A stretch of 64,000 bases of DNA from NCBI GenBank assembly GCA_963847095.1, contig CAWJYS010000021.1, forward strand, positions 123,590-187,589, in the 5' to 3' direction. The notes beneath the pieces were generated by a model. The model was not told the DNA's origin. It made no database searches and saw only the letters and a program-made list of their open reading frames with translations. The stretch's first letter is position 1. Every line of letters begins with the position of its first letter. The DNA is from Methanotrichaceae archaeon. Its GTDB lineage: Archaea; Halobacteriota; Methanosarcinia; Methanotrichales; Methanotrichaceae. Of this stretch, positions 11,741 to 62,308 are shown piece by piece. The position numbers and the translations under genes are program-made.

Positions 11741-12220
11741 TCATTGAGCTTACGATTTCAATCCAAGGCTTTGTCCATAGAGCGCTTTATTCATATAGAG
11801 AAGATGAAGGCTTCTTAGGCCGCTTTAAAAGGTATGTGAAAGGAGTAGAGCCTTCGAATCTGATGGAGTTGATTTCATCTCGGAGGCTCTTTATTAGCAA
11901 AGAAATGGCACTGGATGATTTGATTCTCCCGAACGAAGCGTGATATGAATTTATCCAGTGCAACAACGGCATTGAGGAGGCTTATGGCTTGCGACCTTCT
12001 GCCTGGGTGAGCTGCCATGGGCAGGAGCTTTGAGAGCGTGAGGATAGGCGCGAAGTATGTCTCGGTCAAATGGCCGAAGGATGGATGATTAGGGGAATAA
12101 TCGGATTCGTAGGCATGGCCCGTGGATCTCATAATACTGTGATTCCTTCCTTCAACGATTACTCCATTATCTTGAGCAGCAAGAAAGGTATTCCAGCTAT
12201 CCGGGAGGTTTGTTATGCAG

Positions 12221-18981: not shown

Positions 18982-19035
18982 ATACCCATCCCTTTTTTAG
19001 CCACTTACCTTATTGAAATGCTCATGAAGCTAAGG

Positions 19036-19085
19036 CTTTTCCTACCCGGTGAACAACATAAACTATATCTGAGTTATCGCCATCA
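19036..19085 (+). promoter_or_regulatory. Conserved upstream module C
   Basis: Carries the identical leader GGAGGGAGAAGAGC-TTG-AAA-CTC seen in module B. Confidence 0.55.
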
Positions 19086-19110
19086 CCTTCATCAAAGGAG
19101 GGAGAAGAGC

Positions 19111-19737
19111 TTGAAACTCGTTGAAGCTGGAATAATCGCTATAACACTATTTTGTTTAGCAGGGAATGCATATGGAGTTATGCAAGTCTATGATAGTGAT
19201 TTTGGCAAAATTAAAGTTGATTTGCCCATGGTGCTAATCCCAAAAGATGGGAATACAGGTACTTGGATAGACTTAGTTAAGGAAGGATCAGAAAAGCCTG
19301 TCATCTCTATACGCATGCAAACAACTTATGGGGAAGATTTTAAAAAATACGCAACTTCATCAGGCTTTAAGAGTATACCGATTGAAACAACAACCAATGA
19401 CGGATATAAAATAATTTATTACTCTGACCACAGTGGCACTAATAGTCAATATCAACCTGTATATCATTATACTGCGTTTATTGATTACTTGAAAGATAAG
19501 GGTAAGATAGTGCAAATGTGGACTTATTCAGAAGTAAATGGGAAAGAAGGAGCAGTAGCTAGATTTGATAAAGATCAATTCCTTGAAATATCCAAATCCT
19601 TTGCTGTTATAAGTGAATCAGAAGCGCAAGCTATAGTGGCGGAAACTGCAAAAACAAACCAATCGCCGGGATTTGGATCATTCTTCGCTATTCTGAGCCT
19701 TCTCGGAGCTATTTTTATCATGCAAAAGATAAAGTAG
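19111..19737 (+). CDS. Secreted protein with a PGF-CTERM archaeal sorting signal (TTG start at 19111; the tracked ORF from 19018 is over-extended)
   Basis: N-terminus (M)KLVEAGIIAITLFCLAGNAYG. C-terminus SPGFGSFFAILSLLGAIFIMQKIK, i.e. a PGF motif, TM helix and basic tail. Confidence 0.6.
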   Translation: MKLVEAGIIAITLFCLAGNAYGVMQVYDSDFGKIKVDLPMVLIPKDGNTGTWIDLVKEGSEKPVISIRMQTTYGEDFKKYATSSGFKSIPIETTTNDGYKIIYYSDHSGTNSQYQPVYHYTAFIDYLKDKGKIVQMWTYSEVNGKEGAVARFDKDQFLEISKSFAVISESEAQAIVAETAKTNQSPGFGSFFAILSLLGAIFIMQKIK

Positions 19738-23482: not shown

Positions 23483-23689
23483 CCATTTATGAATAGCAGC
23501 ACATGAAGGATATGATGGGGTAACAATGCAGTTGAATTGAGTTCATTGCGGAAACTGCAACATTTAGGGCGTTAATATTAAGCTCTTTGTGCATTTATCT
23601 TGTGATGAACTAATGTTTCTGACAAAGCGTAAGGTACAAAGAGATATCTAATGCGGTTTCCAGCAAAGTTGACCGTAAAATCCTTTGGG

Positions 23690-23846
23690 CGTCCTTTGTG
23701 GGCTTTGTGAGCTTTGTGGTGGTATTTCGTAAGCTTTTGTAGTTAATTACGGACTTAAATCAAACCCCAAAGCTCACAAAGAACTTTTAAGCTTAAGATC
23801 TCTTGACGACCCAAAATGAGGACTACTTAGTTTGGAGGGGCACTAG
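23690..23846. repeat. Dispersed inverted-repeat element of the CACCACAAAGCTCACAAAG family
   Basis: cctttgtgggctttgtgagctttgtggtgg...ccaaagctcacaaag. Homologous to 37538-37688 and 56512-56618. Confidence 0.65.
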
Positions 23847-23929
23847 ATCCCTAGACACAGGTCTATCGCAACTGCTAGTCTTGAAATGATCTGATTGTTT
23901 AGGCCTGATCCGGACATCGCTGTTTTATT

Positions 23930-24193
23930 TCAACGATCTTTCCCCGCAGGTTTCTTCAGGCCCACAGACACCATCCATGCTCCAACTACTACCGTTATCC
24001 CGAATAGAATCAGAGATGGAGCCTCGAGCCCGTGGGGGATGGTGAATAAAACCACGGCACCCATGACGACGCTGCCAAGACCAATGCCTATCACGCTCAA
24101 CCTCGGGTAGATGGGAGTTACGAAAAGGCCCAGGGTTATTAACGCTGCGGCCACGAGAAGAGGAGGCGAGAAAAGTGGGATGGATATTATCAT
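23930..24193 (-). CDS. Small two-TM membrane protein
   Basis: 87 aa, hydrophobic. Confidence 0.4.
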   Translation of the reverse strand: MIISIPLFSPPLLVAAALITLGLFVTPIYPRLSVIGIGLGSVVMGAVVLFTIPHGLEAPSLILFGITVVVGAWMVSVGLKKPAGKDR

Positions 24194-25399
24194 GTTACAA
24201 ACTCGATCTACAGAATACTTATAGTTTCTTCCCGGCGGTTCCCTTCACTGCAGGCAGTGTGCCCTTGACTGGACTGAAGTAGCTTTTTGCCTGGTTCCGA
24301 AACTGAGTTATGCGCGTGAAAGGTATTTATCTTGGGACGAGAGGGACGAATGAAGGATATAGGGCCTGGCCAAATTACAGAAATCTCGTTACACTACCCA
24401 CGACGTATTAAGGAGTATGTGCCTCTTCTCAGTTAAAACAGTGGTCATTATCCAATCGATTAGGCCTGGCATACGGGTTATTTTTTCTTCCAAAGGGGCT
24501 GAGATGGCATATTCGTAGCCTTCACAGCTACGCTTCACAGAATACTTTCGCTCTATCAACGCCTCCTTAATTCCTTCTTCGAATACTGAGACAAGATTCC
24601 CGTTTGAGTCGGGCGAAAGGCCATCAATGATGTGTGCTCTTATGTCTTCTCCTTGCGAATTGCAGGTCCGGATGCAGAGGGTGGCCTGATCATCGGTTAA
24701 GAGGACGAAGAAGTACCTATCGGGATGAGTCAGAATGTCACAACGCAGCTTTTCAAATGTGCATTCAATTCCAATCTTTATCGAAGTAATTCCCCCTTGT
24801 TAAATCATTTTGGTCGAATCCGAGGCGAGCCTTTCGAAGTCATCATCAGGCTTTGCTTTTCAGAGAGAATTTGGTAAGCTTCTTTTAGATTGACTCTGCC
24901 GAAGATTATAATTTAAATTAATCCGTGTCCAATAGTTAAAAATTTTTCGGTCTGTTGGCGGTGATATGATTGTTATATACGGCACTTACATCTCTTACAT
25001 CTTGACGCTACTAAGTTGTAATTAGAATGTATTCGGATCTTCATGCTGAAGATAAGCTCATAATATGCGGTTAAACAATACCCCTATTCTTCTAATATAT
25101 TTTTTATGTATTCTATCAATATATTTCTATAATATATTCTTCTAATATATACTTTTTAACATGCTGTCCAACATTCGGTGACTGCACAACCTCTCCCACT
25201 GTCAGACTAGCTGCAGATGCCAGACCAGCTCAAGCTGCAGGACTTAGTGCGAATCCCCATAAGATCCAGCTATAAATGCTAATTGTAGATGAGGGCGTCT
25301 TTTTTTCATTGTTTTATTTTAACGTAACGTATATCTGCAATATATTATCATTATTTGCCACCGCCCCAAAAATATATAAAAACATATCAATAGATAGTG

Positions 25400-25870
25400 T
25401 TTGTGGGATACTGGGCAGTCGGGTGAACTCCTCTCGCGGCCTAAAGGCCGGAGCTTCCTACTTTTGCTTCCTGATAGGGGATCATCGCCCTCTGGCTCCT
25501 CGCCCGTTTTGCAGGAATTTTCGGGTCGTCCTTCATTCAGTGAAGTTTGGCGTATCCAGGGACTCCAAAGTCAAGCCATTTCCTCACACAAGGGATCACA
25601 GGATAGGCGAATAGACGCTAAGTTCGGGTATTCCCTCCGAACGGTGAAGCCGAAGCCACACCTTGGATAAGAGATGAATGTAATGCCAAATATAGGTAAT
25701 GCACAGAGCGAAAGTAATCAGGGGGAGGGCTCCGCTTTCATCCTGTGGCTGACTTTTTGTCAGCCACTCCCCCGGACTCCGTCCGGGAGACCGCCCTAAA
25801 GGACGGGGACTTCTCGCTCCGCCCTCTCCGTTCCCGCAAGTTAAAAACGAAAGCTGAAAGCTTTATCGAT
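25400..25870. ncRNA. Candidate structured non-coding RNA, class undetermined
   Basis: A GC-rich island of about 470 nt inside a very AT-rich gene desert, with no credible ORF. It contains multiple perfect hairpins, e.g. GTGGCTGAC-TTTTT-GTCAGCCAC and CCGTCC...GGACGG. Confidence 0.25.
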
Positions 25871-26097
25871 CAAGCCTCAATCGAATGCAATCATCAGCAA
25901 AATTAGCGCTGTCAGTACATAAACAGATTTAGATAGATGAATGGATCATATTTTGCTGAGTTATCTAAAAAATTCAACATTATTGAGAGAGAAACAGCAA
26001 TCTATTGACCTATTATTACTAGATCCTTTAACCGCCGACTTAATATATCTTAGGATAGTGATATGATAAGACAGTAACTTTAATAGGAGAGTCACCT

Positions 26098-26856
26098 GTG
26101 TCACAAGGATGCATAAAGATGGCTAAGGCCATTATCTTCTCGCTATTATTCATATCCATGGTTGCAGCTGGCCAGACGAGCGACCAAAAGATCGCTTTTG
26201 AGCCGATAGATCATACTTATATCTACGATGTCAATAATGATGGGAGCGTCAAGTGCACATGGTCAACTACCATCCTCCCCAAAGAGCCGACCATACTTTA
26301 CACCTATTCTTTCCGCGGCGGGGAGACAAAGAACTACCAGGCAGAGGATTCCTTGGGCCAGATGATAGACCCTGACGTTAATGAGGATAACGGCCAGAGA
26401 ACCATCTCATTGCTGTTGGCAGGCTATCCCACGGGTAAGCCCTATCAGTTCAACTTAAGCTTTGACTGGAGCGGCCTCCTCACGAGAAATGGGGATAGAC
26501 ATACACTCTACACCAGCGTGAACGTAGGAGACCCCCAGGCAGCCGGGATAATAGTAATACCGCCCCAGGACTCCAGAATAGGGACCTCAGTTGTAACCAA
26601 GGGAAATAGCAGTGAGCCCTTCCAGAGAGAGATGCTCTCCAACAGGAACGCCTTAGTCTGGCGTAGCGATAATACTGGAAACGATACTGAGATAGTATTC
26701 CGGGCGAACTTCAACTACTACAGCGCCACTATGAGGCTGATGGATAACGTCTCATACATATTAATCGGTCTTACGATAATAATCGTAGCCGCTCTGCTGC
26801 TGGGATACCGGAAGAAGCTGCCGGGGATGGCGTCCAAGATCAAAGAGCGCATATGA
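26098..26856 (+). CDS. Secreted protein with a C-terminal TM anchor
   Basis: Signal peptide MAKAIIFSLLFISMVAAGQT. C-terminal ILIGLTIIIVAALLLGYRKK. First gene of a three-gene overlapping operon. Confidence 0.55.
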   Translation: MSQGCIKMAKAIIFSLLFISMVAAGQTSDQKIAFEPIDHTYIYDVNNDGSVKCTWSTTILPKEPTILYTYSFRGGETKNYQAEDSLGQMIDPDVNEDNGQRTISLLLAGYPTGKPYQFNLSFDWSGLLTRNGDRHTLYTSVNVGDPQAAGIIVIPPQDSRIGTSVVTKGNSSEPFQREMLSNRNALVWRSDNTGNDTEIVFRANFNYYSATMRLMDNVSYILIGLTIIIVAALLLGYRKKLPGMASKIKERI

Positions 26857-28979
26857 ATGAGGCGTCGGGCAGAGATTCCACCATGAGCAGCAATTCCGGG
26901 AAGCCGACACGGGTTAGAGATTTCCTTCCATATCTACCCCTCCTCTTCTTCATCTTCTGGGAATCGGGAATAGTGCACTCATACTTCCAGCTGATGACGC
27001 CCATGTACATCGTGAGCCTGGTCTCTGGTTTATCCCTGCTCATCTTCTTCTCCTGGGGGAGGTTCGAGAAGGCCAGAGTTCTGGGCATCCCCATATTCTT
27101 CATGTTCTTCTTGCTGAGAAACCCAGTTCCTTATATTTTTCTTCTACTGGTAGTAGCATATTATTTTTATAGAAACGAGTACCTGTTGAAGACCATCTTC
27201 ATCCTGATTCCCTTAACCATCGCAGAGGGACTGGGCATCGGGCTGGACATCAGGGTCACCCTCCTCATAACCCTAATATTCTTCCTGATTGCAGCCCGCT
27301 ACAGCTTGGGAGAGGGTTTGAAGGCTAGAGTGAAGCCCATAACCATTGGCGTCCTCTATGCCTCTCTCATCCTCCTACTTATCAGCATATCTCCGCTGGA
27401 TCCCCTTGCCGGAGAAAAAGACAGCAAAATCGCATACGATGGGTTTCATCATAAGCTGGACTCAGCCTTCTTTGAGAACGACACAATAACTCACTCGACA
27501 TTGAGATACTTAAACTCAGTAGGGTACAATGCTACCGTTCTTGAGGAGCCGATCTCTCCAAAATCCCTGAAGGACGTAAGCATACTCATAATAGAAACTC
27601 CTGAGGAGGCTTACACCTCACAGGAGATCGATTATCTTACCGATTTTGTCAACAACGGCGGCGGACTCTTCGTATTGGGGGACCACACCAACATCATGGA
27701 TTGCTATACAACGCTAAACCCCATACTGCATGAGTTCGGCCTTCACCTTAACTTCGACTACAGCATGCTCTGGGAGCCTCATTTCACCAGCCTGGCGAAC
27801 TTCGACAGCACTGAAGAGACGGCCGGAGCTACGCTGAAGGTCAACAGATCCGATGCACTCATATTTTATGCACTAAAATATACTACCTGGGCAGATCTGG
27901 GCGATTGGACCGCGACAAACCATGCCTATATGGGCGATGTAGTACCCCAAGAGAACGAGCAGTACGGCGTCCTTCCCATATGTGCTGCTGTCAATTACGG
28001 CAAGGGACGGGTAGTTGCCATTGCTAACAGCGACTCCATGAGCGGTTCCAACCTGCTTTACAACTACGACTTCATCACGAAGATAATGGGTTACCTCAAC
28101 TACGAGAACAGCTTCTTCAAGAGCATCTGGTTCCAGGCTATTTTGGTCGTTTTAGTAATGCTTGGAATATTCAGGGCACGCCTGGCTGCAATACCGCCTT
28201 TGATCATCTCACTGGCCCTGATCCTGGTGCTGGTCCAGATACAAGCAGCAATCCCTGCAACATCAGAGCCTGCAAACCCGATTGCTCTCGACATCGGACA
28301 TGTGAACATCGAGGGCTACGGGTATCCTCATCAGTATAAGAGCGTCTTCTTCGCCATATTTGCCCAGCACTACGGCTTCAATCCCGTCCTGACAAAAGAG
28401 GTTCCAAGAGACCTGGAAAAGTATAAAGCCTACGTGACAATGGGACCGACCAACTCCTTTAGCCCTGATGAGGTGGAAAGGCTGAGAAGCTACGTCCAGA
28501 ATGGCGGCTCATTAGTGGTGTTTGACGGCTACCATTCCGATACGCCCGCCAATACTTCGAACAATGCTGCAAACTCCCTGGTCAAAGATTTCGGCCTCTA
28601 TCTCAACGGATCGCTACTGGGGGAGATCAGTTATTTCAACTACACAACTTGGGGCTTCAATCTGCCCTATCTGCAGCAGACGAGGATACAGATCACTCCG
28701 CAGAATGACCCTCTGATGGAGGGTATCGGCGGAAATATCACCATGTACTCCGCAGTAGAGGTCCTGGGCGGAACTCCCCTTGCCCTGTATAACAACACGA
28801 CGCCAGTCATGGTGATCCAGAAGCTCGGCAAAGGCAGGATAATTGTTGTAGGGGACCACACGATATTAAGGGAGTTCGTGAGGTACGAGCCTGTCTTCGC
28901 ATATCCGGATCCAAACCTGAAGAAGTTCATCGAAAACCTGTTCGTATCCATTGGAGGGAGGGAAGAGAATGGAATTTGA
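26853..28979 (+). CDS. Large integral membrane protein (708 aa) with extracytoplasmic domains
   Basis: About eight N-terminal TM segments, then soluble regions with recurring GDHT / GGxLxV motifs. Paralogous to the next gene. Confidence 0.65.
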   Translation: MNEASGRDSTMSSNSGKPTRVRDFLPYLPLLFFIFWESGIVHSYFQLMTPMYIVSLVSGLSLLIFFSWGRFEKARVLGIPIFFMFFLLRNPVPYIFLLLVVAYYFYRNEYLLKTIFILIPLTIAEGLGIGLDIRVTLLITLIFFLIAARYSLGEGLKARVKPITIGVLYASLILLLISISPLDPLAGEKDSKIAYDGFHHKLDSAFFENDTITHSTLRYLNSVGYNATVLEEPISPKSLKDVSILIIETPEEAYTSQEIDYLTDFVNNGGGLFVLGDHTNIMDCYTTLNPILHEFGLHLNFDYSMLWEPHFTSLANFDSTEETAGATLKVNRSDALIFYALKYTTWADLGDWTATNHAYMGDVVPQENEQYGVLPICAAVNYGKGRVVAIANSDSMSGSNLLYNYDFITKIMGYLNYENSFFKSIWFQAILVVLVMLGIFRARLAAIPPLIISLALILVLVQIQAAIPATSEPANPIALDIGHVNIEGYGYPHQYKSVFFAIFAQHYGFNPVLTKEVPRDLEKYKAYVTMGPTNSFSPDEVERLRSYVQNGGSLVVFDGYHSDTPANTSNNAANSLVKDFGLYLNGSLLGEISYFNYTTWGFNLPYLQQTRIQITPQNDPLMEGIGGNITMYSAVEVLGGTPLALYNNTTPVMVIQKLGKGRIIVVGDHTILREFVRYEPVFAYPDPNLKKFIENLFVSIGGREENGI

Positions 28980-31059
28980 GTCCAAGGTAACGGGCTTTGC
29001 AACCGGGCTCCTCCTACTTGGGAGCTATATCATGCTGTTCGACCTGTGGGATTATTCCAGCTTCCTGGTAGCCCTCTCCTCCATTCTCCTCCTGCTGGTC
29101 GCCTTCCGCGACCACAACTTTGGGAGAAGCGATATGGTGGGATTTGTTCTGGCCGCACTGGTTTTCCTGTTTTTTTTCATGGACCTGGCCAACAACACCT
29201 TCCTTCCATTGGTGGTAGTTCTGGCTCTTTCCCTGGCCGCAATCAACGCCAGGCCCGAGGCCTTTGTGCCGTCTTTAGCTGGCCTACTGGTATTGCAGTT
29301 CATGAACCCTGCGTTTCTTCTCAAAGGGCTGAACATAATCTTCGTAAGTCTGTCCCCTCTGCTCAAAATACGCTACGAGATAAACGATCTGGGATACATG
29401 GTGCTCTACCATTCCAAGACCCATCTGCCCATACTGGTAGATGACGTGAAGCTTCTCATTCCCTTTTACGCATCTCTGCTGGTGGCGGGCCTGGTTCTGC
29501 TGGTTATTCTTAACGAAGACAGCAAGAATGAAGACAGAAAGACTCAGATAAAGTACGCGCTCCTAATTGCCGCCGTCCCCTTCCTGTTCTCCATCCTTAC
29601 CCTGCAAAACCTGCTTTACGGGCCAGCAACAGCAAGCTTCCTTCCCGATAATCAGTCGGCTCTCGCTTTACCCCTGGCATCTGTTCTTCTGATGTCCATC
29701 TTGATTCCGGGAGCAAGCTTAAGGGGACTTCAGACTGGAGGCCTGAGAGGCCTGGCTGAGAAGAGAATCACTCTGCTCATTCTGGCGGCTTTCTTCTTCC
29801 TAAGCCTATTCTACTACACTCCAATTACTACCAGCTCAGATCCGGTAGTAATAATAGACGAGTCCAACAGCGAATGGGAGCCGACCTGGCCGGACTACGT
29901 TCAAACCTACAAGATAGATCCCGTAAGCGGCACAAACAACTACTTCGGGCTGCTGGGCATTCTCGCCAGCCTTTACGATGTTACTCTCACCGTTGACCGA
30001 CCTGAAAAGCAGCCGGCAGTCAGCTCAGTGAAAGCAGTGCAGATCGGTGATCTATCCCTGGAGACTTTGGAGGAGATCGCTGGCGGCAGAAAGGCTGTGC
30101 TGGTGGTAAAGTGTCTGACCAGCCCGTACAACCAGTCGGAGATAGATGCCATACTGGACTTCACAGCCAAAGGCAACGGTTTAATCCTGATCGGAGAGCA
30201 TACGGACATCTACGGCATGTGCACCTACCTGAATCCAATCTCAGAGCAGATGGGTTACAGGTTTTTGCCGACAGGCGTTCAGGACGTCTACACCGACACA
30301 AGAGGATCGATAACCCAGAAGGGAGAGCTTCCGCCTCTAATGGCTCGCTACATGACCGGCGACCAGGTATGGGAGACTAGCGCCAGCATGGAGAAGCTAT
30401 CGAATGCTAAGCCGCTCTTTGAGGTCATCACAAGGCCGAGCTACTTCGCTCATTACCGCAACGAGACCTCTGCCTTCTTCCTGACGAGAGAGTTCACAGA
30501 GGAGATCAAGCTCAACTCCCAGTTTGCGAGACACCTGGTGCTGGCGGGAACGACTTACGGCGATGGCAGAGTAGTCCTGTTCACCGATTCCACAGACTTC
30601 AATAATGGGATCATCGGCTTTGGAGACCACATGCCGATCTTCCTGGCAATGGTTGAGTATGTCTCTTCGGAGGAGAAGTACAGCAAAGCCTTCATTCCCT
30701 TCTTGCTTCTAATCATGGCCCTGGCAATAGTAATACTCAACAGGAGAAATGCATATAGTGCCCTGGTGGTGCTGTCCATATTGCTTCTCCTCTCATTCAA
30801 TCTCTCCTACCCGCTGGCGCATTACACGACGCAGTTCCCTGAGCTGAAAAGAGAGTCAACGATTGTCATACTAGAAGCCGACCAGCATTACATGGAGGAG
30901 TATCTATCAGGCATGTATGATATGGAGAAGCTGATGGACAAGTACTTCCAGAAGAACCTGACAGCTCTGATCATGGCAAACCCGCCGCAGGAGTGGATCG
31001 GCATCAGCAGCGAAGTGGAGAACCTGAAGGACGCCATCATGGATATAAAGCCCGCCTGA
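28951..31059 (+). CDS. Large integral membrane protein (702 aa), paralogue of 26853-28979
   Basis: Same architecture and motifs (LILIGEHTDI, GFGDHMPIF). Its start overlaps the upstream gene. Confidence 0.65.
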   Translation: MEGGKRMEFESKVTGFATGLLLLGSYIMLFDLWDYSSFLVALSSILLLLVAFRDHNFGRSDMVGFVLAALVFLFFFMDLANNTFLPLVVVLALSLAAINARPEAFVPSLAGLLVLQFMNPAFLLKGLNIIFVSLSPLLKIRYEINDLGYMVLYHSKTHLPILVDDVKLLIPFYASLLVAGLVLLVILNEDSKNEDRKTQIKYALLIAAVPFLFSILTLQNLLYGPATASFLPDNQSALALPLASVLLMSILIPGASLRGLQTGGLRGLAEKRITLLILAAFFFLSLFYYTPITTSSDPVVIIDESNSEWEPTWPDYVQTYKIDPVSGTNNYFGLLGILASLYDVTLTVDRPEKQPAVSSVKAVQIGDLSLETLEEIAGGRKAVLVVKCLTSPYNQSEIDAILDFTAKGNGLILIGEHTDIYGMCTYLNPISEQMGYRFLPTGVQDVYTDTRGSITQKGELPPLMARYMTGDQVWETSASMEKLSNAKPLFEVITRPSYFAHYRNETSAFFLTREFTEEIKLNSQFARHLVLAGTTYGDGRVVLFTDSTDFNNGIIGFGDHMPIFLAMVEYVSSEEKYSKAFIPFLLLIMALAIVILNRRNAYSALVVLSILLLLSFNLSYPLAHYTTQFPELKRESTIVILEADQHYMEEYLSGMYDMEKLMDKYFQKNLTALIMANPPQEWIGISSEVENLKDAIMDIKPA

Positions 31060-33837: not shown

Positions 33838-34501
33838 TTTATTACATATGGCTGGAAATAATCTCTTTGTGTCCCTGTGGTATGGCACTCGGCATCCGGC
33901 AACGGATGTCAGGGTGTCAGGTGGCGCAAGATACGGTGGCCAAGGAGAGTCCTTGCCTTTGTAAATCTCATTTGATGTAATACCCTTATATGGCAGGGAA
34001 TCGATCTTGCTCATACATTCTCTCATGTCCATCTCCGAAGGCGAGGATGAGGCAGGCATAAGTGCTTGAGGCCTTTGATGAATAAAGCATTCCGAAATGA
34101 GGAGCCGATATGACTTGTGATCGTTGTACTAGAGCACCGGTTGGTGCATGCGTGGGCGAGGCGTTTTGTTCCTCCCTCCATCTGTCTGATGAGGACGCCT
34201 GCAGGCTTGCGGCTGATATCTGCCTCTCCTGGTGGCAGAAGAGAGATGAGGATATCGAGATAGATGATATGCTCTGGGAGATGTCTGAGCGGCGGATCGA
34301 TGAGCTGGCAAACGATCCTCAGGTAGCCCGCGCATATCTCGCCGAGAGGAGGATCGATTGATCCGGCTGTATTTTTCTATTAAATGCATAAAAAAACAAA
34401 AAAGTTTCACTTTTGGCACAGAATCCTTTGTCTGAGCTGCAGCTTTATGCTTTGCTTTATATTTCAGGCATTAGCGCAGTCAGTTTCTAGAATCCAGTCG
34501 C

Positions 34502-41290: not shown

Positions 41291-41439
41291 TCCGAATCCG
41301 GTGGAGAAAATCGCTTCAAGGAGTAGTCTGTAGAAGTTCGAGGATATCTAACGACGTCTGAAGTCGATTTGGGAAGGTGCGCCGACCCCTTCTAAATTAC
41401 TTTGGGATTGCTCTTCTAGTGGAAGACTCGAACAGCATG

Positions 41440-41545
41440 CTTCCGCGTGCGGGCATGCGGGAGCGTGGCCGCTCGGGCGGGCCCGCCCGGCGCCGGAAGG
41501 CCGGATCTCCCGAGCGGAGCTCGCCTCCCCTGCTCTGCTCACCGC
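41440..41545. other. GC-rich palindromic tract (16-bp perfect palindrome CGGGCGGGCCCGCCCG nested in a longer stem)
   Basis: gccgctcggg...cccgagcgg stem enclosing cgggcgggcccgcccg and ccggaaggccgg. Above 75% GC in an AT-moderate intergenic region. Confidence 0.5.
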
Positions 41546-41677
41546 TGCAAAAAGACGAAGGACCAAGATAGGGAAGATCAAGCCGGATGGTCGTGCCTTA
41601 GGGAAGAGAGGGCGAGGCGTAAGGGAAGATTTCTTTTTAGAGAATATCGGGTACCATTTTAACAGGGTAATCACTGC

Positions 41678-41953
41678 TTACTTTCTCTTGTATATCTCAT
41701 CATGGTGTCTGAGATCGAGCAACTTCACCGTCATATTCTCCTCATCCACTTCGAAAACCAATACAAAGGACTTCTCCAGGTGAACCCTTCTCAGCCCCTT
41801 CAAATCGTATCTTAAAGGCTTAAAGTGCTTGGGGTTATCTAAAATCTCCTCTGTTTTATTCAGCACTGCATCGTAAAGAGACCTGTTCTTCTTGAATAGC
41901 TTCTTCAAATGAGCCTTCAGATCCTCATCGATCAGCAGCCTGTAGCGCGGCAT
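41678..41953 (-). CDS. RelE/ParE-family type II toxin
   Basis: KPLRYDLKGLRRVHLEKSFVLVFEVDEE pattern. Confidence 0.7.
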   Translation of the reverse strand: MPRYRLLIDEDLKAHLKKLFKKNRSLYDAVLNKTEEILDNPKHFKPLRYDLKGLRRVHLEKSFVLVFEVDEENMTVKLLDLRHHDEIYKRK

Positions 41954-41955
41954 CT

Positions 41956-42201
41956 TCAGCTTTCCTCTAATGATCTCTTCAGGCTTTCTAGATCCGAGAA
42001 CTCCTCGAACTTGCCCTCCTGACGAACCTTCTGCAGCTTTTCAACGTATTCATCCTTGACCGTATAAACTGCGTCAGTATAGATATCAATGAGAGTCTCA
42101 AGCATGTCCTCCATCCTATCGACCTTTTCCCTCAGAACCTTCAGATCATTTTGAATGGAGCTTATAGCTGTATTTTCCGCCTCAATCATATCCAAAACCA
42201 C
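41956..42201 (-). CDS. Putative cognate antitoxin (coiled-coil, 81 aa)
   Basis: Immediately upstream of and co-oriented with RelE. Confidence 0.45.
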   Translation of the reverse strand: MVLDMIEAENTAISSIQNDLKVLREKVDRMEDMLETLIDIYTDAVYTVKDEYVEKLQKVRQEGKFEEFSDLESLKRSLEES

Positions 42202-42233
42202 TCCTACTTATTGGGGTTGAATATTAAAGCTTG

Positions 42234-42620
42234 TCATTTATTTGGAGCTTTTTTGAGCCGATGTCTTCCTTGACATATTGGGTCTTGTTCATTAAGAAAT
42301 CTCGCAGTTCTGCTCCGATTTACTCCTGCAAATCCCTGGACATAGAGGGCCTCACTCTCGATCTGTGTCTTGAGCCTGGGCCGGATGGACTTGCGGGTGA
42401 CCAGATCTACAGGACGGCCCAGCAGATCCTCAAGGAAGAATTCGAGATCCATGTACCCGTTGAAGGTGGCTGAACCCTGGAACTCAACCAGGATGTCTAC
42501 ATCGCTATCCGGACGGGCCTCATCCCTGGCAACAGACCCGAAGACTGCCAGAGTTTTCACCCCCATTCGGGTCAGCTCATCTCGATGGACGGCTAGCGTC
42601 TGCAGGATCTCTGATCTCAT
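42234..42620 (-). CDS. Minimal nucleotidyltransferase (MNT) of a HEPN/MNT-type module, with an atypical roughly 30-aa C-terminal extension
   Basis: LAVFGSVARDEARPDSDVDILVEF (GS...DxD) NTase motif. Confidence 0.7.
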   Translation of the reverse strand: MRSEILQTLAVHRDELTRMGVKTLAVFGSVARDEARPDSDVDILVEFQGSATFNGYMDLEFFLEDLLGRPVDLVTRKSIRPRLKTQIESEALYVQGFAGVNRSRTARFLNEQDPICQGRHRLKKAPNK

Positions 42621-42764
42621 CTTGATCCTCTCAAAGATTACTATGGAGATCTTTGATATAAAGGGGTTTTGAAATTCGGAAATGACAAAACATAATAATT
42701 GAGGTAAAAAATATATCCTCAGGTAAAGCTAAATAGGCTTGAACGTCCTTCATTCGAAATTACT

Positions 42765-43787
42765 ATGTACCAAAGTCAAATCCGAGATAGTCAAATAACT
42801 GCTCTAAAGGAAAAGGTAGAAAAGAAAAATTATGGAAAATATTTATATAAAATTAAGTTATTGCGTGTGCGGAATTTTGAAGATCAAGACGTTATCTTTG
42901 AATTCCCAGTAACCGCTCTGATTGGCCCAAATGGCGGTGGGAAAACCACAATCTTGGGTGCAGCTGCTTGTGCTTATAAGGAAATATATCCTAGGCAATT
43001 CTTCGTTAGAAGCGGCAATATCGATGACGGCATGCAAAATTGGAAAATTGAGTACGAGCTTGTTGATAAAGGAATTAATCCTAAGAATAATATCAAAAAA
43101 ACCGCTAGCTTTCATAGTTCTAAGTGGAGTCGTGAGACACTAAGTCGCAGCGTAGCAGTGTTAGGAGTTTCTAGAACGGTTCCAGCAACAGAGAGGCGGG
43201 AACTTAGAAAATACGCTTCAAATGCTTTTACTGTTGATGTTTCAAAGATAACTGAAATAGGAGATGCAATTTCATCTGCCGTAGAAAAGATATTAGGAAA
43301 AGACATCACTGGATATACACATATAATAGTAGATCAACATGGGCGTGTATCGCTATTAGCGGGTGTGACCAACAAAGGTACTCATTATTCTGAATTTCAC
43401 TTTGGAGCGGGAGAATCCAGTATAATACGTATGGTCATGAAAATTGAGTCAATGCCCGATAATTCTTTGATTTTAATAGAAGAAATAGAGAATGGCTTAC
43501 ATCCGGTTGCAACCGTTAGCATGGTAGAATATTTGATAGATGTAGCCGAAAGGAAAAAGATACAAGTTATTTTTACAACTCATTCTGAAGAAGCATTAAA
43601 ACCGCTTCCGTTTCAAGCCGTTTGGGCGGCTATTGACGGAAAGGTAGTGCAAGGAAAGCTGGATATCAGCGCGTTACGTTCTATTAGTGGAGAAATCGAC
43701 GCCAGGCTTGTAATTTTCACTGAAGATCGTTTCCTCAAAAAATTGGGTAGAATCCATGATTCGCGCCTATGGTGGTATTGCCGTTGA
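42765..43787 (+). CDS. ABC-type (AAA_21/AAA_15-like) ATPase, defence-system-like
   Basis: Walker A GPNGGGKTT, signature-like FGAGESS, Walker B LILIEEIENGLHP, H-loop TTHS. AT-rich. Confidence 0.8.
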   Translation: MYQSQIRDSQITALKEKVEKKNYGKYLYKIKLLRVRNFEDQDVIFEFPVTALIGPNGGGKTTILGAAACAYKEIYPRQFFVRSGNIDDGMQNWKIEYELVDKGINPKNNIKKTASFHSSKWSRETLSRSVAVLGVSRTVPATERRELRKYASNAFTVDVSKITEIGDAISSAVEKILGKDITGYTHIIVDQHGRVSLLAGVTNKGTHYSEFHFGAGESSIIRMVMKIESMPDNSLILIEEIENGLHPVATVSMVEYLIDVAERKKIQVIFTTHSEEALKPLPFQAVWAAIDGKVVQGKLDISALRSISGEIDARLVIFTEDRFLKKLGRIHDSRLWWYCR

Positions 43788-43901
43788 TCTAGTAAATGTG
43801 CACGCGATGGAAGGTGATGGTACCGCAGTCAAAGTTAATTTGTATCACAATATCGATCCAAGTGCTAAGGTACTTCTATCTGTTATATTGATGGTGATTC
43901 T

Positions 43902-44270
43902 ATGCAAGAAGAATCTACTAAACATAGGGTATTCCGTCTGCCTGGAGCAATACCAGAGTCTTTCATTTATAGCGAAGTAGTGGATGTTCTATCTGATAAT
44001 TCTGGCATACTTGCAGTTTCTTTGCATAAAAAATATGAAGATGCAGAAAGAGTAAGCACCCTTATCCGAGAAATCAAAATTACTAACAGAGATCCTCATC
44101 TTCTGTATTCACAAGTCGGTAGAGCATTAGGACTTATTCCACCGGAAATTATTATCGGAGGATTCTTAAATGTGTGGTGCACAGCATATCCTGAAAAAGT
44201 AAAGATTCTACTTGGACCGATAATAGATTTATTGCCCAAAGAAGAAACTCAAAGAGAATTGCATGAATGA
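43902..44270 (+). CDS. Hypothetical 122-aa protein, putative partner of the ATPase
   Basis: Co-oriented and 115 nt downstream. No recognisable domain. Confidence 0.4.
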   Translation: MQEESTKHRVFRLPGAIPESFIYSEVVDVLSDNSGILAVSLHKKYEDAERVSTLIREIKITNRDPHLLYSQVGRALGLIPPEIIIGGFLNVWCTAYPEKVKILLGPIIDLLPKEETQRELHE

Positions 44271-44286
44271 TTCAACTCAGAAATAG

Positions 44287-44520
44287 AGAAGTAACCTGGG
44301 GGCAATAGAGCTGCTTATTGATGAACTGGCGGCAAGAGAGGTGGCCTTGCAGCAGGGAGTTCCAATCATCGGGTTTCCCGGCATCTTAATCCGTGCCTGT
44401 CAGCAGGGCATGATGGAGCCGGAAGATGTGAAAAGCGCCTTGGAGGAGTGCCGGAGGCAGGGAACCCATTATTCTCCCAGGCTAATAAATGAGGTATATA
44501 ACAGATTGAAGAGGCCCTGA
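44287..44520 (+). pseudogene. C-terminal remnant of a DUF3368-family (PIN-like toxin) gene, lacking a start
   Basis: ...IGFPGILIRACQQGMMEPEDVKSALEECRRQG... resembles DUF3368 C-termini. The open frame begins directly after a stop. Confidence 0.35.
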
Positions 44521-44521
44521 A

Positions 44522-44789
44522 ATGAAAAAGAAACACGCACCACACGAGCCCAAGGAAGAGGTACTTTCTGCAGCTGATGCCTTTAAGGACGCAGAGCAGT
44601 CTGAAGCCCGCTGGCAGACCTTTGAAAGAGATCAGAAGCTACAGTCGGGTGCTGGTCGAGCTGCCTGAGCCGGCCTTTTCCAAACTGGAGAAGCTAGCCA
44701 GGGCGCGCAGGAGGACCGTCGCCAATCTTGTGGAAGAGGTTATCATCGGCCTGGTGGATGCTCTTACTCCTTCGGAAGAAGAGGCTTAA
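44522..44789 (+). pseudogene. RHH (CopG-like) antitoxin-like gene, apparently frameshifted
   Basis: The start Met frame (MKKKHAPHEPKEEVL...) ends at 44668. The RHH-like part (RVLVELPEPAFSKLEKLARARRRTVANLVEEVI) continues in another frame with no start. Confidence 0.35.
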
Positions 44790-45155: not shown

Positions 45156-45260
45156 GAGCAACCTTCTAATACAATTAATCCTCGCCTTAAACACACATGC
45201 TTACCTTTCACGCCTCATGTAAAGGATTAGAGTAACCTTCTAATACAATTAATCCTCACC
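45156..45260. promoter_or_regulatory. Two 32-bp direct repeats upstream of fdhA
   Basis: agagcaaccttctaatacaattaatcctcgcc at 45156-45187 and agagtaaccttctaatacaattaatcctcacc at 45229-45260. Confidence 0.5.
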
Positions 45261-45261
45261 A

Positions 45262-48033
45262 TTGGCCGGCGCGGTTGGGAACATGTTTGAAATCAGACTG
45301 ATCATCGATGATCGAGAGGTAACGGTCCCCGAGGGGACGACCATTCTCGATGCAGCCCGCAAAGCGGGCTCTTATGTGCCGGCACTTTGCCATCACCCGG
45401 ACTTGAAGCCCATAGGCTCCTGCAAGCTGTGCATCGTCTCTGTAAAGGGCCTTGATTACTATCCTACATCCTGCAATACTCTGGCGGAGAATGGAATGGT
45501 GGTACAGACCCGGACAGAAGAGCTGCAGGAGATGAGAAGACACACCCTGGAGATGCTCTTGGCTCTCACCAATCATCCCACCTCCTGCCTTTTTTGCGAG
45601 AGGAGGAACGAATGCACCGACCTGCGCGAGTGCATGAGGAAATTTCCGGTGACCGTGGGCTGCAAGTACTGCCCCAAGGATGGGGAGTGCGAGCTGCAGG
45701 AGGCGGTGCAGTTCGTCGGCCTGGAAAACATCAGATATCAGCTCTCTTTTAGGAATATGCCGGTTTTAAGAGAGCCCTTCTTCGATCGCAATTACAACCT
45801 CTGCATCATGTGCAGCCGCTGCGTGCGAACCTGTCAGGAGGTGCGCGGGGTGGGTGTGCTGTCCAGCAATCCCGATTTTCACCGCATGCACTGGATAGGC
45901 CCCGAGTCTCTGCAGGACTCAGACTGCAAGTTCTGCGGCGCATGTGTGGATGTCTGCCCCACCGGTGCCCTCTACGCCCGGTCTGAGAAATGGGTGCGGC
46001 CAGAGAAGACGGTCGTCACCGTCTGCCCCTACTGTGGCGTTGGCTGCCGATTAGAGCTTAGAGTCAAAGAAGACAGAATTATCTCTACCGCTCCTGACAA
46101 AGAAAGCCCGGTAAATCGGGGGCAGGCATGCATTAAAGGCCGTTTTGGACTGGAAGAGATTGTCCATCATCCCGACCGTTTGACCACTCCCCTGATAAGA
46201 CGCAACGGCAGACTTGAGGAGGCCAGCTGGGAAGAAGCACTCGACCTGGTCGCCAAGAGGTTCACTGAGATTAAAAATAAATACGGTCCTGATTCACTGG
46301 GAGCATTATCCTCTTCCAGGTGCACCAATGAGGAGAACTACCTGGTGCAGAAACTTGCACGGGCAGTGTTTCACACCAACAATGTGGACAACTGCGCGCG
46401 AGTCTGCCATGCCCCATCGGTCACAGGGCTTGCCGCCTGCTTCGGGAGCGGAGCAGCTACCAATTCCTTTGACCAAATTGTTGACGCCGATGTCCTGTTC
46501 GTTATCGGTTCCAATACTACCGAGGCTCATCCGATCGTCAGTCTGAAGATGATCAAGGCAGCTCACAAGGGCGCAAAGATCATCGTGGCTGACCCCCGTA
46601 AGATCGAGCTGGTCGACCTGGCAACAGTATGGCTCAACCTAAAGCCGGGAACTAATATCGCCCTGCTGAATGGAATGATGAATGTCATCCTCAGGGAAGG
46701 GCTGGAAGATAGGGACTTTATTGCCAGGCGTACTGAGGGCTTCGAGGAATTGCGGAAGGTGGTTGAGGAATATCCGCCAGAACGGGCTGCCAAAATAACC
46801 GGAGTTGCGGAGGAAGATATCATTGAGGCAGCCCGACTCTATGCTGAGGCAAAAAAGGCAATGATCATCTATAGCCTGGGAATAACCGAGCATATTACTG
46901 GAACCGCCAATGTAATGTCCTTAGGCAACCTGGCAATGCTTACGGGCAATGTGGGACGCCGGTCGACCGGGGTAATGCCTCTCCGCGGGCAAAATAACGT
47001 GCAGGGGGCCTGCGATATGGGGGCTCTTCCCAATGCTTACGTTGGTTATCAGCCGGTAGCGGACCCGAATATACAGTCCAAATTCGAACAAGCCTGGAAG
47101 GTCAAATTGCCCGCAACTCCTGGTCAGACCTCCACTCAAATGTTAGAGCGTGTTACAGAAGGGGGAATCAGGGGGCTTTATATCCTGGGGGAAGATCCTG
47201 CCCAGACCGACCCTGATACCAATCGGGTCCGTGCTTCACTCAAAGCCCTGGACTTCCTCGTTGTCCAGGAGATATTCCCTACTGAGACGACCAATTATGC
47301 CGACGTTATCCTGCCTGCTGCCAGCTTTGCGGAGTGTGACGGAACCTTTACCAATGGCGAGCGGCGCATTCAACGGGTGCATAAAGCGATACCTGCAATT
47401 TGTGGTCTGGAGAACTGGCAAACAATCTGCCTTATTGCCCAAAAGATGGGCTATCCGATGAACTACAGTCACCCTTCGGAGATTATGGATGAAATTGCCT
47501 CTCTTGCACCGATGTTTGCCGGAATAAGTTTCGCGCGGCTGGGTACCGGGGGGCTGCAGTGGCCCTGTCCGTCTATTGAACATCCGGGCACAGAGACGTT
47601 GCATGTTGAGAAATTCAGCCGGGGCCTCGGAAAATTTAACGCCGTGGAGCACAAATTCCCTACCGAGCAGACTGATCCTGATTATCCTTTGATTCTTACC
47701 ACCGGTAGGAGGAGAGAGCATTACAACTGCGGCTCCATGACCCGGCGCTCCAGTGGAATCATGTAGATATGGCCGGAGGAAGCAATAGAAATAAGCCCTG
47801 CGGATGCAAAAGAGCTTGGGGTTGAGGACGGGGAGATGGTTCTAGTCAGTTCCAGGCGAGGCGTTGTTAGGACAAAAGCAAGAGTTACCGATAAGTCACT
47901 ACGCGGCGTAGCCTTTATGTCCTTCCACTACCAGGATGTTCTTACTAACCTTCTTACCAACGCTGCCCTGGATCCTCAGGCAAAGACGCCGGAGTATAAG
48001 GCATGCGCCATACGCATAGAGAAAATCACTTGA
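45262..48033 (+). pseudogene. fdhA: Formate dehydrogenase alpha subunit (NuoG-like 2Fe-2S and 4Fe-4S N-terminus plus molybdopterin domain; Cys, not Sec, at the active site), interrupted by one in-frame TAG at 47764-47766
   Basis: 2Fe-2S CHHPDLKPIGSCKLC, ferredoxin CxxCxxCxxxCP twice, MopB VCPYCGVGC, active-site CARVCHAPS, and a C-terminal TGRRREHYNCGSMTRRS...VSSRRG...AFMSFHY. Both ORFs (45262-47766 and 47836-48033) are in the same frame, with 23 sense codons between them. Confidence 0.8.
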
Positions 48034-48667
48034 TGAAAGACTAAAGTGACTCTACTCTCCAACTTTCACAATGCTCAGAAGAAAAGAAACCTCGGGGAGA
48101 TGGCTGGACGGATCAGAGCTGAAGCCATCCTCGGCTTAATAGTAGAGGTTCTGGTACTCTTAAATCTGCCAATTCCCGATGAGAGGGGACTTGTTGAAAT
48201 GGTGAAAGCGATGGGACTAAAACTTGGAAAGTAGAGTAAATTACATAGCGCAAAATCATCATAGCTCAGTCCGTTTCGGGCATTCGCCATCTTATGCCAC
48301 ATGTTGCCTGGAAATGGCAACCAGCGGCCTTGGCAACATGTGCCGGAGCTCGTGCAACCCCCTCGTCTACGGTAGTGCCTTATACATAAAGAGATGAGTA
48401 TGTCAGAGGTTAAAATGGTAGAATGTGTTTTTTGCGGCAGCTTGAGTGCTGCGGGACGGTTTGTTGTCCCAGGTAGCTGGATATGTAGTTCGTGTGTAAC
48501 TCTTCTTGAAGAGCCATTAAATTGGGACTCGGTGGGTTGCCGAGCTTAGTGCGTCGCTCTGAAAAATAGTCATACACCCCCGTGTAGGGGGGTCATAATG
48601 ACCCAATGACCCTCACCCTCTCGCAAATACTATCAACATTATGATTATGCAAACGCTATAGCTCCAT

Positions 48668-49926: not shown

Positions 49927-51838
49927 CTAACCCTCAAGATCTCTGAACATCATACGCATTTCATAGACCCCTTCCTCACTTCTCTTCTCCATATCAAATC
50001 CCATATTTTTAAAGAGGTTAAGCATCGGCTTATTCTCAACTAAGACATCCGCAGTAAATCCCAGCAAGCCTCGCCTTCTGGCCAGACGGGTGAGATAAGT
50101 GAGCAGATCGTGGCCTACGCCCATATTTTGATACTCATCCTTTACCACCAGCGCAACCTCGGCGGTATGCATCTTCTCATTTATCTCATATTGCCCAATT
50201 GCGGCGATGGTTTCCTTACGGTCTCCCTCAACAATAGCCAGTATCATCATACTATTAGCATAGTCTACTATCCCGAATTCCTGCAGCCGCTTATGGGGCA
50301 TATCCATTCTTGCAGACATGAACCTTCGGTACATGCTCTCATTGGAAAGAGCATAGAAAAAGTCCTTCATCAAGGGCTCATCTCCGATCTTCACAGGCCT
50401 CAGGAGAATATTAAGCCCACTCCTGGTTGTCCTGAATGTCTCCAAAGCTACTGGATATACCCCTTTCACCCCAGGTATGAACGCCTGATCTTCATAGATG
50501 AGCAAACGCTTCTTGGCCTCAACAATTAGCCACGGCCTGAACTTGGGATGGGCAATAGCAATCAGATCCATGGCACGTTCCCTGATATTTTTGCCGTGGA
50601 GATATGCTATGCCATACTCAGTTACTACGTAGTGGACATCCCCTCGGGTCAGAGTCACTCCCGTACCCTCCTGGAGAGATGGCACTATCCTCGAAATGGT
50701 ATCGTTGACGGCAGTTGAGGGAAGGGCCAGGATGCTCTTTGCCGCCCGGCGCAAGCACGGCTCCTCTCATGAAATCTGCCTGGCCGCCGACGCCGAAGTA
50801 GAATGTCCCGCTCAGTGATTCTGCGGTCGCCTGGCCGGTCAAATCGATCTCCAGAGCGCTGTTGATTGCTGTCATCAACTTATTTTTGGCAATAATCAAA
50901 GGGTTGTTTACATAATCGATGGTCTTGAACTCGATAGTTGGATTCTCATCCAGAAACTCGTAAGTCTCCTTCTTGCCCATGCAATAAGAAGCCACAGTCT
51001 TACCCGTATCGATGGACTTCTTGGTGTTATCCACCACGCCCTTCTTCATCAGATCAACGATGCCGTCGCTCAAGAGCTCAGTATGTACTCCGAGATGCTT
51101 TTTCTCACCCAGGTAGGAGACCACAGCATTGGGTATGATGCCATATCCAACCTGCAGCGTAGATCCATCCTCAATGATCCGGGCAACATACCTGCCTATC
51201 GCCTGGATGATGTCCCCTGGGTCTTCTACCGTATACTCCAGCAATGGTTCATCGTAAGGAATAATGAAATCTACATCTTTTATATTTATGAATCCATCAC
51301 CCTGGGTGCGAGGCATATGGGAGTTTATCTGGGCCACGATCAGCGATGCCTTCTGGGTCGCAGCCTTTACGATATCTACGCTAATCCCCAGGCTCATATA
51401 GCCGTGCTTATCTGGAGGAGATGTCTGGATTAACGCCACGTCTATTGGTATTATCTCCCTTCGGATGAGGCCGGGAACGGCGGAAAGAGATATGGGGGTG
51501 TAGTCTGCTGCGCCTCTGTTGATCGCATTTCTTGTGCCGTCGCTGATGAAGAATGAGTCGATCCGGAAGTTATCACGGAATTTTTCATCTATGTAGGGAG
51601 CAGCGCCCAGGGTCCATACGTGTATTAGCTCGATACCGAAAAAGGCTTTGGGATTGCTGCCAACGAAGTTCACCAGCGCCTGAACCAGATACTGGGGCTC
51701 GCCGCAGCCCGTGCCTATGAAGATCTTATCGCCAGCATGTATATGGCTGAATATCTCTTCTTCCGATGCGAACTTCTCTGGCCAAGCCTCCTTTAGATTC
51801 TCCAAGAAATTGATTCTTTCCATTGTTTTCCCTGCCAT
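49927..51838 (-). pseudogene. Acetyl-CoA hydrolase/transferase-family protein fused to a C-terminal GNAT acetyltransferase domain, split by a +1 frameshift near 50737-50742
   Basis: The N-terminal ORF (50618-51838) ends ...GGQADFMRGAVLAPGGK. The C-terminal ORF (49927-50754) continues ...KSILALPSTAVND..., then a GNAT motif (QNMGVGHDLLTYLTRLARRRG). An extra base in ggcggcaaaGagcatcctg disrupts the GGKSILALPST motif. Confidence 0.7.
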
Positions 51839-60052: not shown

Positions 60053-60796
60053 TACCTCAAATTAACTCAATAATAATGCCATTTAAGCATCTATTCGTTG
60101 TTTGAGCTTCTATATAAAATGTATGCTTGCTCGAGCATAGTTAGTACTATGGTATTATAATCAATCGCCAAAGATTAATTATCAACTCCCGTATATTCCT
60201 GATTTGGAAATTATGATACTCCTCTAGTTCGCGAGTGAGCGATTGGCTAGCCTAAGAAATCGGACATGTTGTTAATGCAATCGATGTATCAATTGCATGG
60301 GTAAAGAAATATCTGAGAACATCCTAGGCTTTTATTCACTTTGTGTCTTAGTTGTTTGTGTCTTCGTGATTTAGCGCGCATTAGTTCACCACTTTTCGTA
60401 CCGGCTTATCGCTAAGCTAAACAGAATTGCAGTTTGGGAATCAGCACAAACCGATTGCCTTTTGTTCGCCGAAGCTTTGGGTATATAGAGACAATAGGGA
60501 AAATACAGATATATACTTTAATAAGACAAGAGATATATTGACCTAATCCCTACACTAGAATGTGAGCGTTGTTTTCTCCTTTGAGGATTGCAGGTCTGAG
60601 GCAGAGCCCAACGCTTATCTAAGGCCTCGCTTCGAAGAGGACGCCCCGAAGAGGATTGATTTTTCAAACCAAATTTCCAAGCACTGCCTTTGTCGGGCTT
60701 TTTTGATGAGTTCTTCAGGAAGATGTTGCACGGAATTTGCCGCCTGCCATCTGGCAGAGTTTTTCAACATGAGGCGAAAATTGGGAGATATAAAAG

Positions 60797-61312
60797 ATGT
60801 CTATTATCATAAGCTCTGAGGGTCTTCGCACCGGCGATAGTCTGATTAGCCACCTGGAGTACTACGAAGCGATCTTTGAGAGAAAGGCACTGGTTACCAG
60901 GGAAGGCGAGTTCAGGAATCGCAAACTCGGCCTGACTGTAGAACTCCTGAAGATAGTAGGCATCCCCGAGAATCTCAAGACAGAGCTGATCTCTGCAGTT
61001 ATTGACGCCTGGAGGATGGAAGCCCCTGAAAAGACGGTTGAGCAGAGGGAAGAAGAGCTGAAGATGCTTCTGCATACCATCAAAGCTGTGAAGAACGCTG
61101 CGAATTGGGCCAGAGAGCACCCAAGCCCAATGATTGGGCAGCAGCTGGATGTGGCTGTCATGTTCTCTCTCCCGCTTATGTCCTCAGATCTCAGGCCTGA
61201 GGAGGTTTCCAAAGTCCACTGCCTGCTCTGCCAGGTTATGGACCATTACGCAGCCATGATAGACGGCTCCATTCTCAATAGACCTGAGAAGGACAGTTCT
61301 GATTCTGCTTGA
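60797..61312 (+). CDS. Hypothetical protein (171 aa)
   Basis: ORF. Confidence 0.4.
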   Translation: MSIIISSEGLRTGDSLISHLEYYEAIFERKALVTREGEFRNRKLGLTVELLKIVGIPENLKTELISAVIDAWRMEAPEKTVEQREEELKMLLHTIKAVKNAANWAREHPSPMIGQQLDVAVMFSLPLMSSDLRPEEVSKVHCLLCQVMDHYAAMIDGSILNRPEKDSSDSA

Positions 61313-61504: not shown

Positions 61505-62308
61505 ATGGCAACGGTAAAGGGCAGAGTAAAGGCCAGGCTGGAAGCTGGCAGCTATCAACGCAAAATCCTGGAGAACCCTGTCCAAAGAGCTAAGATCGTC
61601 CTCAAAGGGGGCACTCCTTATGTTCATATCTATGTAACCTGCAAAGTGCCTGAGAAAGAGGCGGATGATCCCGTGGGAGTAGATCTGGGCGTCAGGAAGC
61701 TTCTGGTGGCATCTAACGGCTTTAAAATAAATGGGGGACTGGTAAAGGCCAGGCAAAGGCATTTTAGGGCTCTCAGGGAATCTCTCAAATCAAAAGGCAC
61801 CTCCTCTGCACGGAGGAGGCTCAAACGGCTACAAAAGAGAGAGAACCGATGGATGAAGAACGTTCTTCATCAGTCCAGCAGGGGCCTGATCGTATCTCTT
61901 GAAGAGGGCAGCTACATTTCCCTGGAGAGGCTCTACGGCACGAAGATCAGGAGTAAGGTGAATAGGAATCGAAAATGTACAAGGAGAGCATACAAGTCCT
62001 CGGCCATGTGCAGGCTCCAGCACATGATAACTTACAAGTGTGAGGAGAGCGGCATTCCTGTGGTGCTGGTCAAACCGGACTTCACATCACAGCGCTGCCC
62101 CAGATGCGGCACCATAGATAGATATAATCGCAGGACGCAGGCGCTCTTTAGATGCGTGAACTGCGGGTATCAGCACAATGCAGACTTCGTGGCATCCATT
62201 AACCTCCGGGAGCTGGCTCGCGGAGGTTGGGCTGCTGTCAGCCAGCCTTATGCGATCCCAACTGTATATGGGGACTGCGAGCCCGTTTTGCAGCATTTTT
62301 TGCACTGA
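61505..62308 (+). mobile_element. tnpB: N-terminally truncated TnpB-like (IS200/IS605 OrfB-family) gene
   Basis: RuvC-I VGVDLGVRKLLVAS, zinc finger CPRCG...CVNCG, RuvC-III NADFVASINL. About 150-200 N-terminal residues are missing. No tnpA nearby. Confidence 0.65.

Follow-up and report, generated by a model that had tools for sequence, protein, structure and literature searches.

What does a TAG codon mean when it lies in frame inside an otherwise intact archaeal gene for the alpha subunit of formate dehydrogenase? The question is raised by the fdhA gene of a 64,000-nucleotide stretch of DNA, called the window below, and the possible answers range from a nonsense mutation or a wrong base in the assembly to a codon that is decoded. 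From the comparison with relatives, we conclude that the TAG is an ordinary one-base lesion, caused by mutation or by sequencing error, in a well-conserved archaeal FdsA-type fdhA.

An FdsA-type fdhA with one internal stop

Close homologues of the reconstructed FdhA (at most 95% identity) all belong to metagenome-assembled genomes (MAGs) of Methanothrix, Methanotrichaceae or Methanocrinis. The host is thus an acetoclastic methanogenic archaeon and not a bacterium, which corrects the sequence-only reading that drew attention to the codon.

Pfam families matched by the reconstructed protein (PF04879, PF00384, PF01568, PF13510, PF22117 and PF10588) add up to the MopB domain set of a formate dehydrogenase alpha subunit, together with a NuoG-like N-terminal Fe-S module. 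The latter is represented by Fer2_4, Fer4_Nqo3 and NADH-G_4Fe-4S_3; Molybdop_Fe4S4 and Molybdopterin follow over residues 299-707, and Molydop_binding covers residues 803-909. FdsA of Rhodobacter capsulatus, from the NAD+-dependent Mo formate dehydrogenase FdsABGD (PDB 6TG9/6TGA), aligns over residues 4-912 (E = 1.9e-234 for 6TG9) and shares the NuoG-like 2Fe-2S/4Fe-4S module at the N-terminus, the MopB domains and the Cys-His pair. At this pair, where the metal ligand (Cys or Sec) is followed by His, ARVC375H376 of the window protein aligns with CARVCH of FdsA, in line with the initial assignment of a Cys-type active site. The bacterial protein has Trp at the site of the window TAG. Unlike its R. 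capsulatus counterpart, the window gene is archaeal, monocistronic and interrupted at codon 828, and FdsB/G-type (NuoF/NuoE-like) partners are lacking both in the window and beside its orthologues.

Translation of positions 45262-48036 confirms a single internal stop, followed by 88 sense codons and a TGA (48031-48033); the DNA around the stop reads GGA ATC ATG TAG ATA TGG CCG GAG (47755-47778). The earlier count of 923 codons is reproduced when the frame is read from TTG 45262. The conserved start, as placed by upstream alignment with nine orthologous loci, is nevertheless ATG 45283, which gives 916 codons; the same alignment identifies the sequence 5' of this ATG as a conserved non-coding element that does not encode protein. 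Over its whole length the reconstructed FdhA is 95% identical to the database protein P0001 (100% coverage, end to end); it is more than 80% identical to dozens of Methanothrix proteins, and its C-terminus, ...IRIEKIT, is that of P0001, P0002 and P0004. Given this end-to-end alignment and the shared terminus, the continuity of the frame across the TAG is non-random, and conservation runs straight across the codon as first described.

Orthologues hardly differ over the approximately 65 nt that precede the ATG (block at about 45215-45282), and this leader has no match in Rfam even at E <= 1. A 22-nt motif, AACCTTCTAATACAATTAATCC, is present in the window in two exact copies, with 0 expected by chance. 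In 11 other loci, too, exact copies are found ahead of an fdhA orthologue or paralogue, and in other Methanotrichaceae the motif stands unchanged, 28-49 nt ahead of fdhA paralogues of ~55-62% identity (loci L027, L035, L043 and L050). It is probably a shared archaeal fdhA promoter, or else an operator or regulator-binding site.

The gene had also been described as orphaned. Indeed, a scan of the window ORFs that took in almost every one of 150 aa or longer finds no fdhB or fdhD family. What does not hold is that this isolation sets the window apart: the intact orthologues of loci L077 and L078 are monocistronic too, FdhB, FdhD and NuoE/F-like genes being absent over a distance of 10 kb, and their flanks are not syntenic with the window. 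Immediately upstream of fdhA, the window holds a cluster of small genes of toxin-antitoxin or defence-like character (41348-44789; Table 1), while in L078 the orthologue is preceded by HicA/HicB instead. The flanks of fdhA are therefore variable, and the accessory genes differ by genome.

Table 1 Window features discussed in the text, with positions counted from the first nucleotide of the window
Feature	Position	Strand	Description
fdhA, whole frame	45283-48033	+	predicted FdsA/NuoG-type formate dehydrogenase alpha subunit; 916 codons + TGA, one TAG inside
fdhA, 5' part	45283-47763	+	827 codons; all Fe-S domains, Mo/W-bisPGD domains I-III, Cys375-His376
fdhA, in-frame TAG	47764-47766	+	codon 828; TGG (Trp) in closest relatives
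fdhA, 3' part	47767-48033	+	88 undecayed codons + ancestral TGA; most of domain IV
22-nt motif	45234-45255	+	28-49 nt upstream of ATG; intact
22-nt motif, second upstream copy	45160-45181	+	exact copy, from upstream alignment
EEP gene	1802-2908		ended by TAG
Erythromycin-esterase-like gene	3383-4687		ended by TAG
Flavodoxin gene	12221-12790	-	ended by TAG
PGF-CTERM protein	19018-19737		ended by TAG; signal at residues 217-234 of 239
ParE toxin	41678-41953	-	upstream of fdhA
MNT-type nucleotidyltransferase	42234-42620	-	upstream of fdhA
AAA_21/AbiEii-like ATPase	42765-43787		upstream of fdhA
RHH_5/CopG-like protein	44577-44789		upstream of fdhA
Acetyl-CoA hydrolase/transferase-GNAT fusion gene	49927-51838	-	+1 frameshift at 50737-50740, ~3 kb from the fdhA TAG

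Codon 828 in relatives and constraint past the TAG

The closest homologues, database proteins P0001-P0011 (91-95% amino-acid identity), read ...RRS[SKR]GIM-W-[IV][WY]PEE... at the site. At the DNA level, codon 828 is TGG in L077 (95% identity), L078, L001 and L059, so that the window TAG is a single G-to-A transition removed from the TGG of its nearest relatives. In a tally of 49 motif sites from 76 genome loci, which takes in paralogues and second MopB genes, TGG is found at 17 sites and TAC or TAT at 13, with a few other codons and not one TAG. The corresponding column in 64 full-length orthologous proteins holds 44 W and 16 Y; the residues that occur there among homologues are W, Y, F, H, R, E and K.

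The truncated form is equally absent elsewhere. None of the best 120 database proteins ends at ...GIM, and the metagenome collection yields 0 matches both to the degenerate pattern SGIM-TAG-[IV]WPEE and to an exact 27-mer in which codon 828 is given as TRG. Exact-protein look-ups returned no identical database protein for the truncated FdhA, nor for the DAO oxidoreductase, the RNase II-like protein or the frameshifted acetyl-CoA hydrolase fragment of the window. Since it is missing from the orthologues, the genome loci and the metagenome contigs, the TAG is, among all sequences compared, private to the window sequence. The conservation in orthologues that marks the TAG of a pyrrolysine gene is thus not seen at any of the 49 sites, in the 64 proteins or in the metagenome contigs.

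Past the TAG, the gene shows no sign of decay. Against L077, the 827 codons that precede the TAG have a dN/dS of 0.144 and the 88 that follow it one of 0.132; comparisons with other close relatives give similar figures. Only two states of the window FdhA are private with respect to the 64 orthologues: H700, which falls in a variable column, and the TAG itself; no window-unique residue lies downstream of it. The 22-nt motif ahead of the gene is undamaged as well. As for the hallmarks of a recent pseudogene, the frame is disrupted relative to intact orthologues by the stop at codon 828, and neither dN/dS nor private residues indicate relaxed selection or further lesions beyond it. From the undecayed 3' codons, the shared C-terminus and the intact upstream motif, we infer that the change is either extremely recent, or unreal, or functionally silent.

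TAG as a terminator in the window

A rival explanation is that the TAG is decoded, by pyrrolysine insertion or by readthrough with a near-cognate or suppressor tRNA, to give full-length and active FdhA. The preservation of all 88 codons past the TAG would fit this explanation, as would the tolerance of column 828, where an inserted residue might be accepted among the several found in homologues. Pyrrolysine is moreover used by some families of the wider Methanosarcinales, the group in which the relatives fall. We nevertheless consider decoding very unlikely, in the first place because no orthologue or metagenome contig carries the TAG. A recoding signal would be expected to be conserved in orthologues, which the window TAG is not, and this argues against recoding.

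The use of TAG elsewhere in the window points in the same direction. Ten of the 35 window ORFs of at least 150 aa end in TAG (~29% of stops), in contrast to constitutive Pyl-decoding archaea such as Methanosarcina, where TAG makes up <5% of stops (PMC4153887; PMC12180501); the depletion of TAG as a terminator that accompanies pyrrolysine genes is therefore absent here. Methanotrichaceae have also been grouped with the taxa that do not use pyrrolysine (PMC12180501).

Pfam supports nine of the ten TAG-ended ORFs: EEP, erythromycin esterase, flavodoxin, 8xMP, FMN reductase, Band 7, DEAD-box helicase, the GNAT end of the acetyl-CoA hydrolase fusion and a PGF-CTERM protein. The first three had already been cited as genes in which TAG is an ordinary terminator, and all three are confirmed. 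The PGF-CTERM protein is particularly informative: the sorting signal must be C-terminal, and so the TAG that closes this gene is a working terminator, which speaks against decoding. In-frame extensions beyond the terminator TAGs are short and meaningless. The original argument that genome-wide pyrrolysine decoding is unlikely therefore stands, on the grounds that TAG is a frequent and genuine terminator in the window and that the fdhA TAG is private.

Also against decoding, no other conserved window gene bears an in-frame TAG. The one candidate for a second such gene, at 34129-34419 (minus strand), where alone another TAG has a long open run behind it (106 codons), was rejected as an Arg/Pro-rich, low-complexity and non-coding frame with no gene hallmarks. 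The 64-kb window has no pylT, pylS or pylBCD, and its sole tRNA is tRNA-Pro(GGG). Neither is there a PYLIS-like structure, which is not obligatory, 3' of the TAG: the 107 nt from the TAG fold with an MFE of -28.6 kcal/mol, insignificant against shuffled sequences (z = -1.03).

Two known kinds of in-frame stop codon invite comparison. The pyrrolysine TAG of mtmB, mtbB and mttB in Methanosarcinaceae and Methanomassiliicoccales resembles the present one in that it lies in frame within a conserved gene, here of a Methanosarcinales-related methanogen. It differs in that the window TAG is unconserved, TAG stops are not avoided, and the window contains neither pyl genes nor tRNA-Pyl. Selenocysteine-type formate dehydrogenase genes, exemplified by Sec140 of E. 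coli FdhF, likewise have a stop codon in frame within an fdh gene. In the window, however, the codon is TAG rather than TGA, and residue 828 falls within domain IV, away from the metal ligand, which is Cys375. We find no evidence for a recoding signal and conclude that the TAG is not one.

Slightly more doubtful still is the notion that this Methanothrix lineage decodes the TAG, whether by efficient natural readthrough or by a hidden system for pyrrolysine or amber suppression, and so makes full-length FdhA with a residue other than Trp at position 828. If true, this would bring both Methanotrichaceae and a formate dehydrogenase into the range of amber decoding.

Recent mutation, consensus error or split gene

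We favour a non-programmed, lineage-private and very recent nonsense substitution in real DNA, with a probability of roughly 0.58. The privacy of the TAG, the TGG of close relatives and the lack of relaxation downstream all support this reading, which was also the one preferred at the outset, with a base-call error and readthrough as lesser alternatives; our ranking agrees on each.

According to this preferred reading, one G-to-A transition would have turned Trp828 (TGG) into TAG, and translation would stop at residue 827. The predicted truncation removes ~82 of the 107 Molydop_binding residues, or about 80% of domain IV. In the solved MopB enzymes of the FdhH and FdsA types, domain IV caps the bis-PGD cofactor; with most of it lost, the product is predicted to be inactive or unstable, and the window fdhA would be a newborn pseudogene. 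Its loss would be tolerable, since Methanotrichaceae genomes usually carry further fdhA paralogues.

A split gene would offer a way around this loss, if the 827-aa product formed an active enzyme with a separately initiated C-terminal fragment. The same frame does contain an ATG-initiated ORF of 65 aa that could supply the latter (47836-48033). Such a fragment would nonetheless lack the first 24 residues past the TAG as well as the portion of domain IV that precedes the TAG. Division of this kind is seen in none of the orthologues, and there is no sign of a conserved start signal. Of all the explanations considered, we regard this one as the most improbable.

A true loss by mutation has parallels in relatives. 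Among 31 completely covered orthologous loci, fdhA is intact in 29. The orthologue in L059 is frameshifted by one extra G at ~12066-12070, and in L066 only remnants are left (657-1560), made of residues 1-40 and then 656-916 with a frameshift, ~615 codons having been deleted. Both are the same fdhA with a lesion that most relatives lack; they differ from the window, with its one nonsense substitution and no further damage, in the kind of lesion (a +1 insertion in L059, a deletion and a frameshift in L066). Loss of this orthologue thus recurs naturally. At the same time, 29 intact loci out of 31 and a dN/dS of ~0.13 indicate that the gene is normally maintained. Together, these observations suggest an orthologue that is useful yet dispensable, probably because of the paralogues. 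Paralogues of ~55-62% identity indeed share a MAG with the orthologue in several cases (L021 and L073, L037 and L049, L010 and L057, L014 and L058), and a tandem second copy lies shortly downstream of the first in L010 (9579-10211), L020 (3083-3412) and L059 (12862-13080). Downstream of fdhA in the window there is no such tandem copy or remnant.

The main competitor of a recent mutation is an artefact of sequencing, polishing or consensus, in which the true codon would be TGG, and a miscalled base, or a minority-strain allele taken up into a metagenome consensus, would account for the A at 47765. We judge it the less probable of the two, while still giving it considerable weight. Only one base distinguishes the TAG from the codon that all closest relatives share, and the unrelaxed constraint after it is equally compatible with an error and with a recent mutation; an error in the base call or the consensus would in fact look exactly like a real substitution. 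A comparable one-base lesion, an insertion, is moreover found in the fdhA of another MAG, that of L059.

On the other hand, H700 is the only other FdhA residue unseen in the 64 orthologues, which speaks against a noisy consensus. Substitution errors in an assembled consensus are also rare compared with indels. Apart from a short TnpB-like ORF, no split or interrupted Pfam matches occur in the other ORFs of at least 150 aa with Pfam hits, and the remains of the orthologue in L066 document a natural loss.

A second lesion ~3 kb away, in the acetyl-CoA hydrolase/transferase-GNAT fusion gene, could reflect an imperfect consensus and fits either reading. Pfam places positions 1-81 of AcetylCoA_hyd_C in the ORF 50618-51838 and positions 77-153 in the ORF 49927-50754. 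One frame reads GGK|EHPGPS at the frameshift, and the other carries on with ...AAKSILALPSTA. In L015 (20900-22654) the orthologue is undivided, an intact ORF with GGKSILALPSTA across the site. Both window lesions strike plausibly dispensable accessory genes, which counts against an artefact.

For annotation, the locus is best described as an interrupted fdhA, a pseudogene or a possible sequencing error, and neither as a truncated enzyme nor as a recoded gene. In metabolic reconstructions, this copy should not be counted as a functional formate dehydrogenase unless the reads are checked. Beyond annotation the lesion is of little importance, and the comparative fdhA result is of minor value.

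Some other parts of the window deserve mention. The TnpB/Cas12f-like ORF (61505-62308, plus strand; 267 aa) matches OrfB_IS605 and the TNB zinc ribbon and looks truncated at its N-terminus. Upstream of it, two ORFs of 85 and 171 aa (60562-61312) have no Pfam hits; the region may be a degraded IS200/IS605 element. A segment of ~2.6 kb (23483-26097) is AT-rich in places and stop-dense in all six frames. It contains just two ORFs of at least 70 aa, 23930-24193 (87 aa, minus strand) and 25276-25614 (112 aa), the latter without a Pfam hit; the segment may be degraded or may not code for protein. Finally, two adjacent paralogous ORFs of 708 and 702 aa (26853-31059, plus strand) overlap by 29 nt; they give DUF4350 or ABC_transp_aux/GATase1-like hits and are preceded by an ORF of 252 aa.
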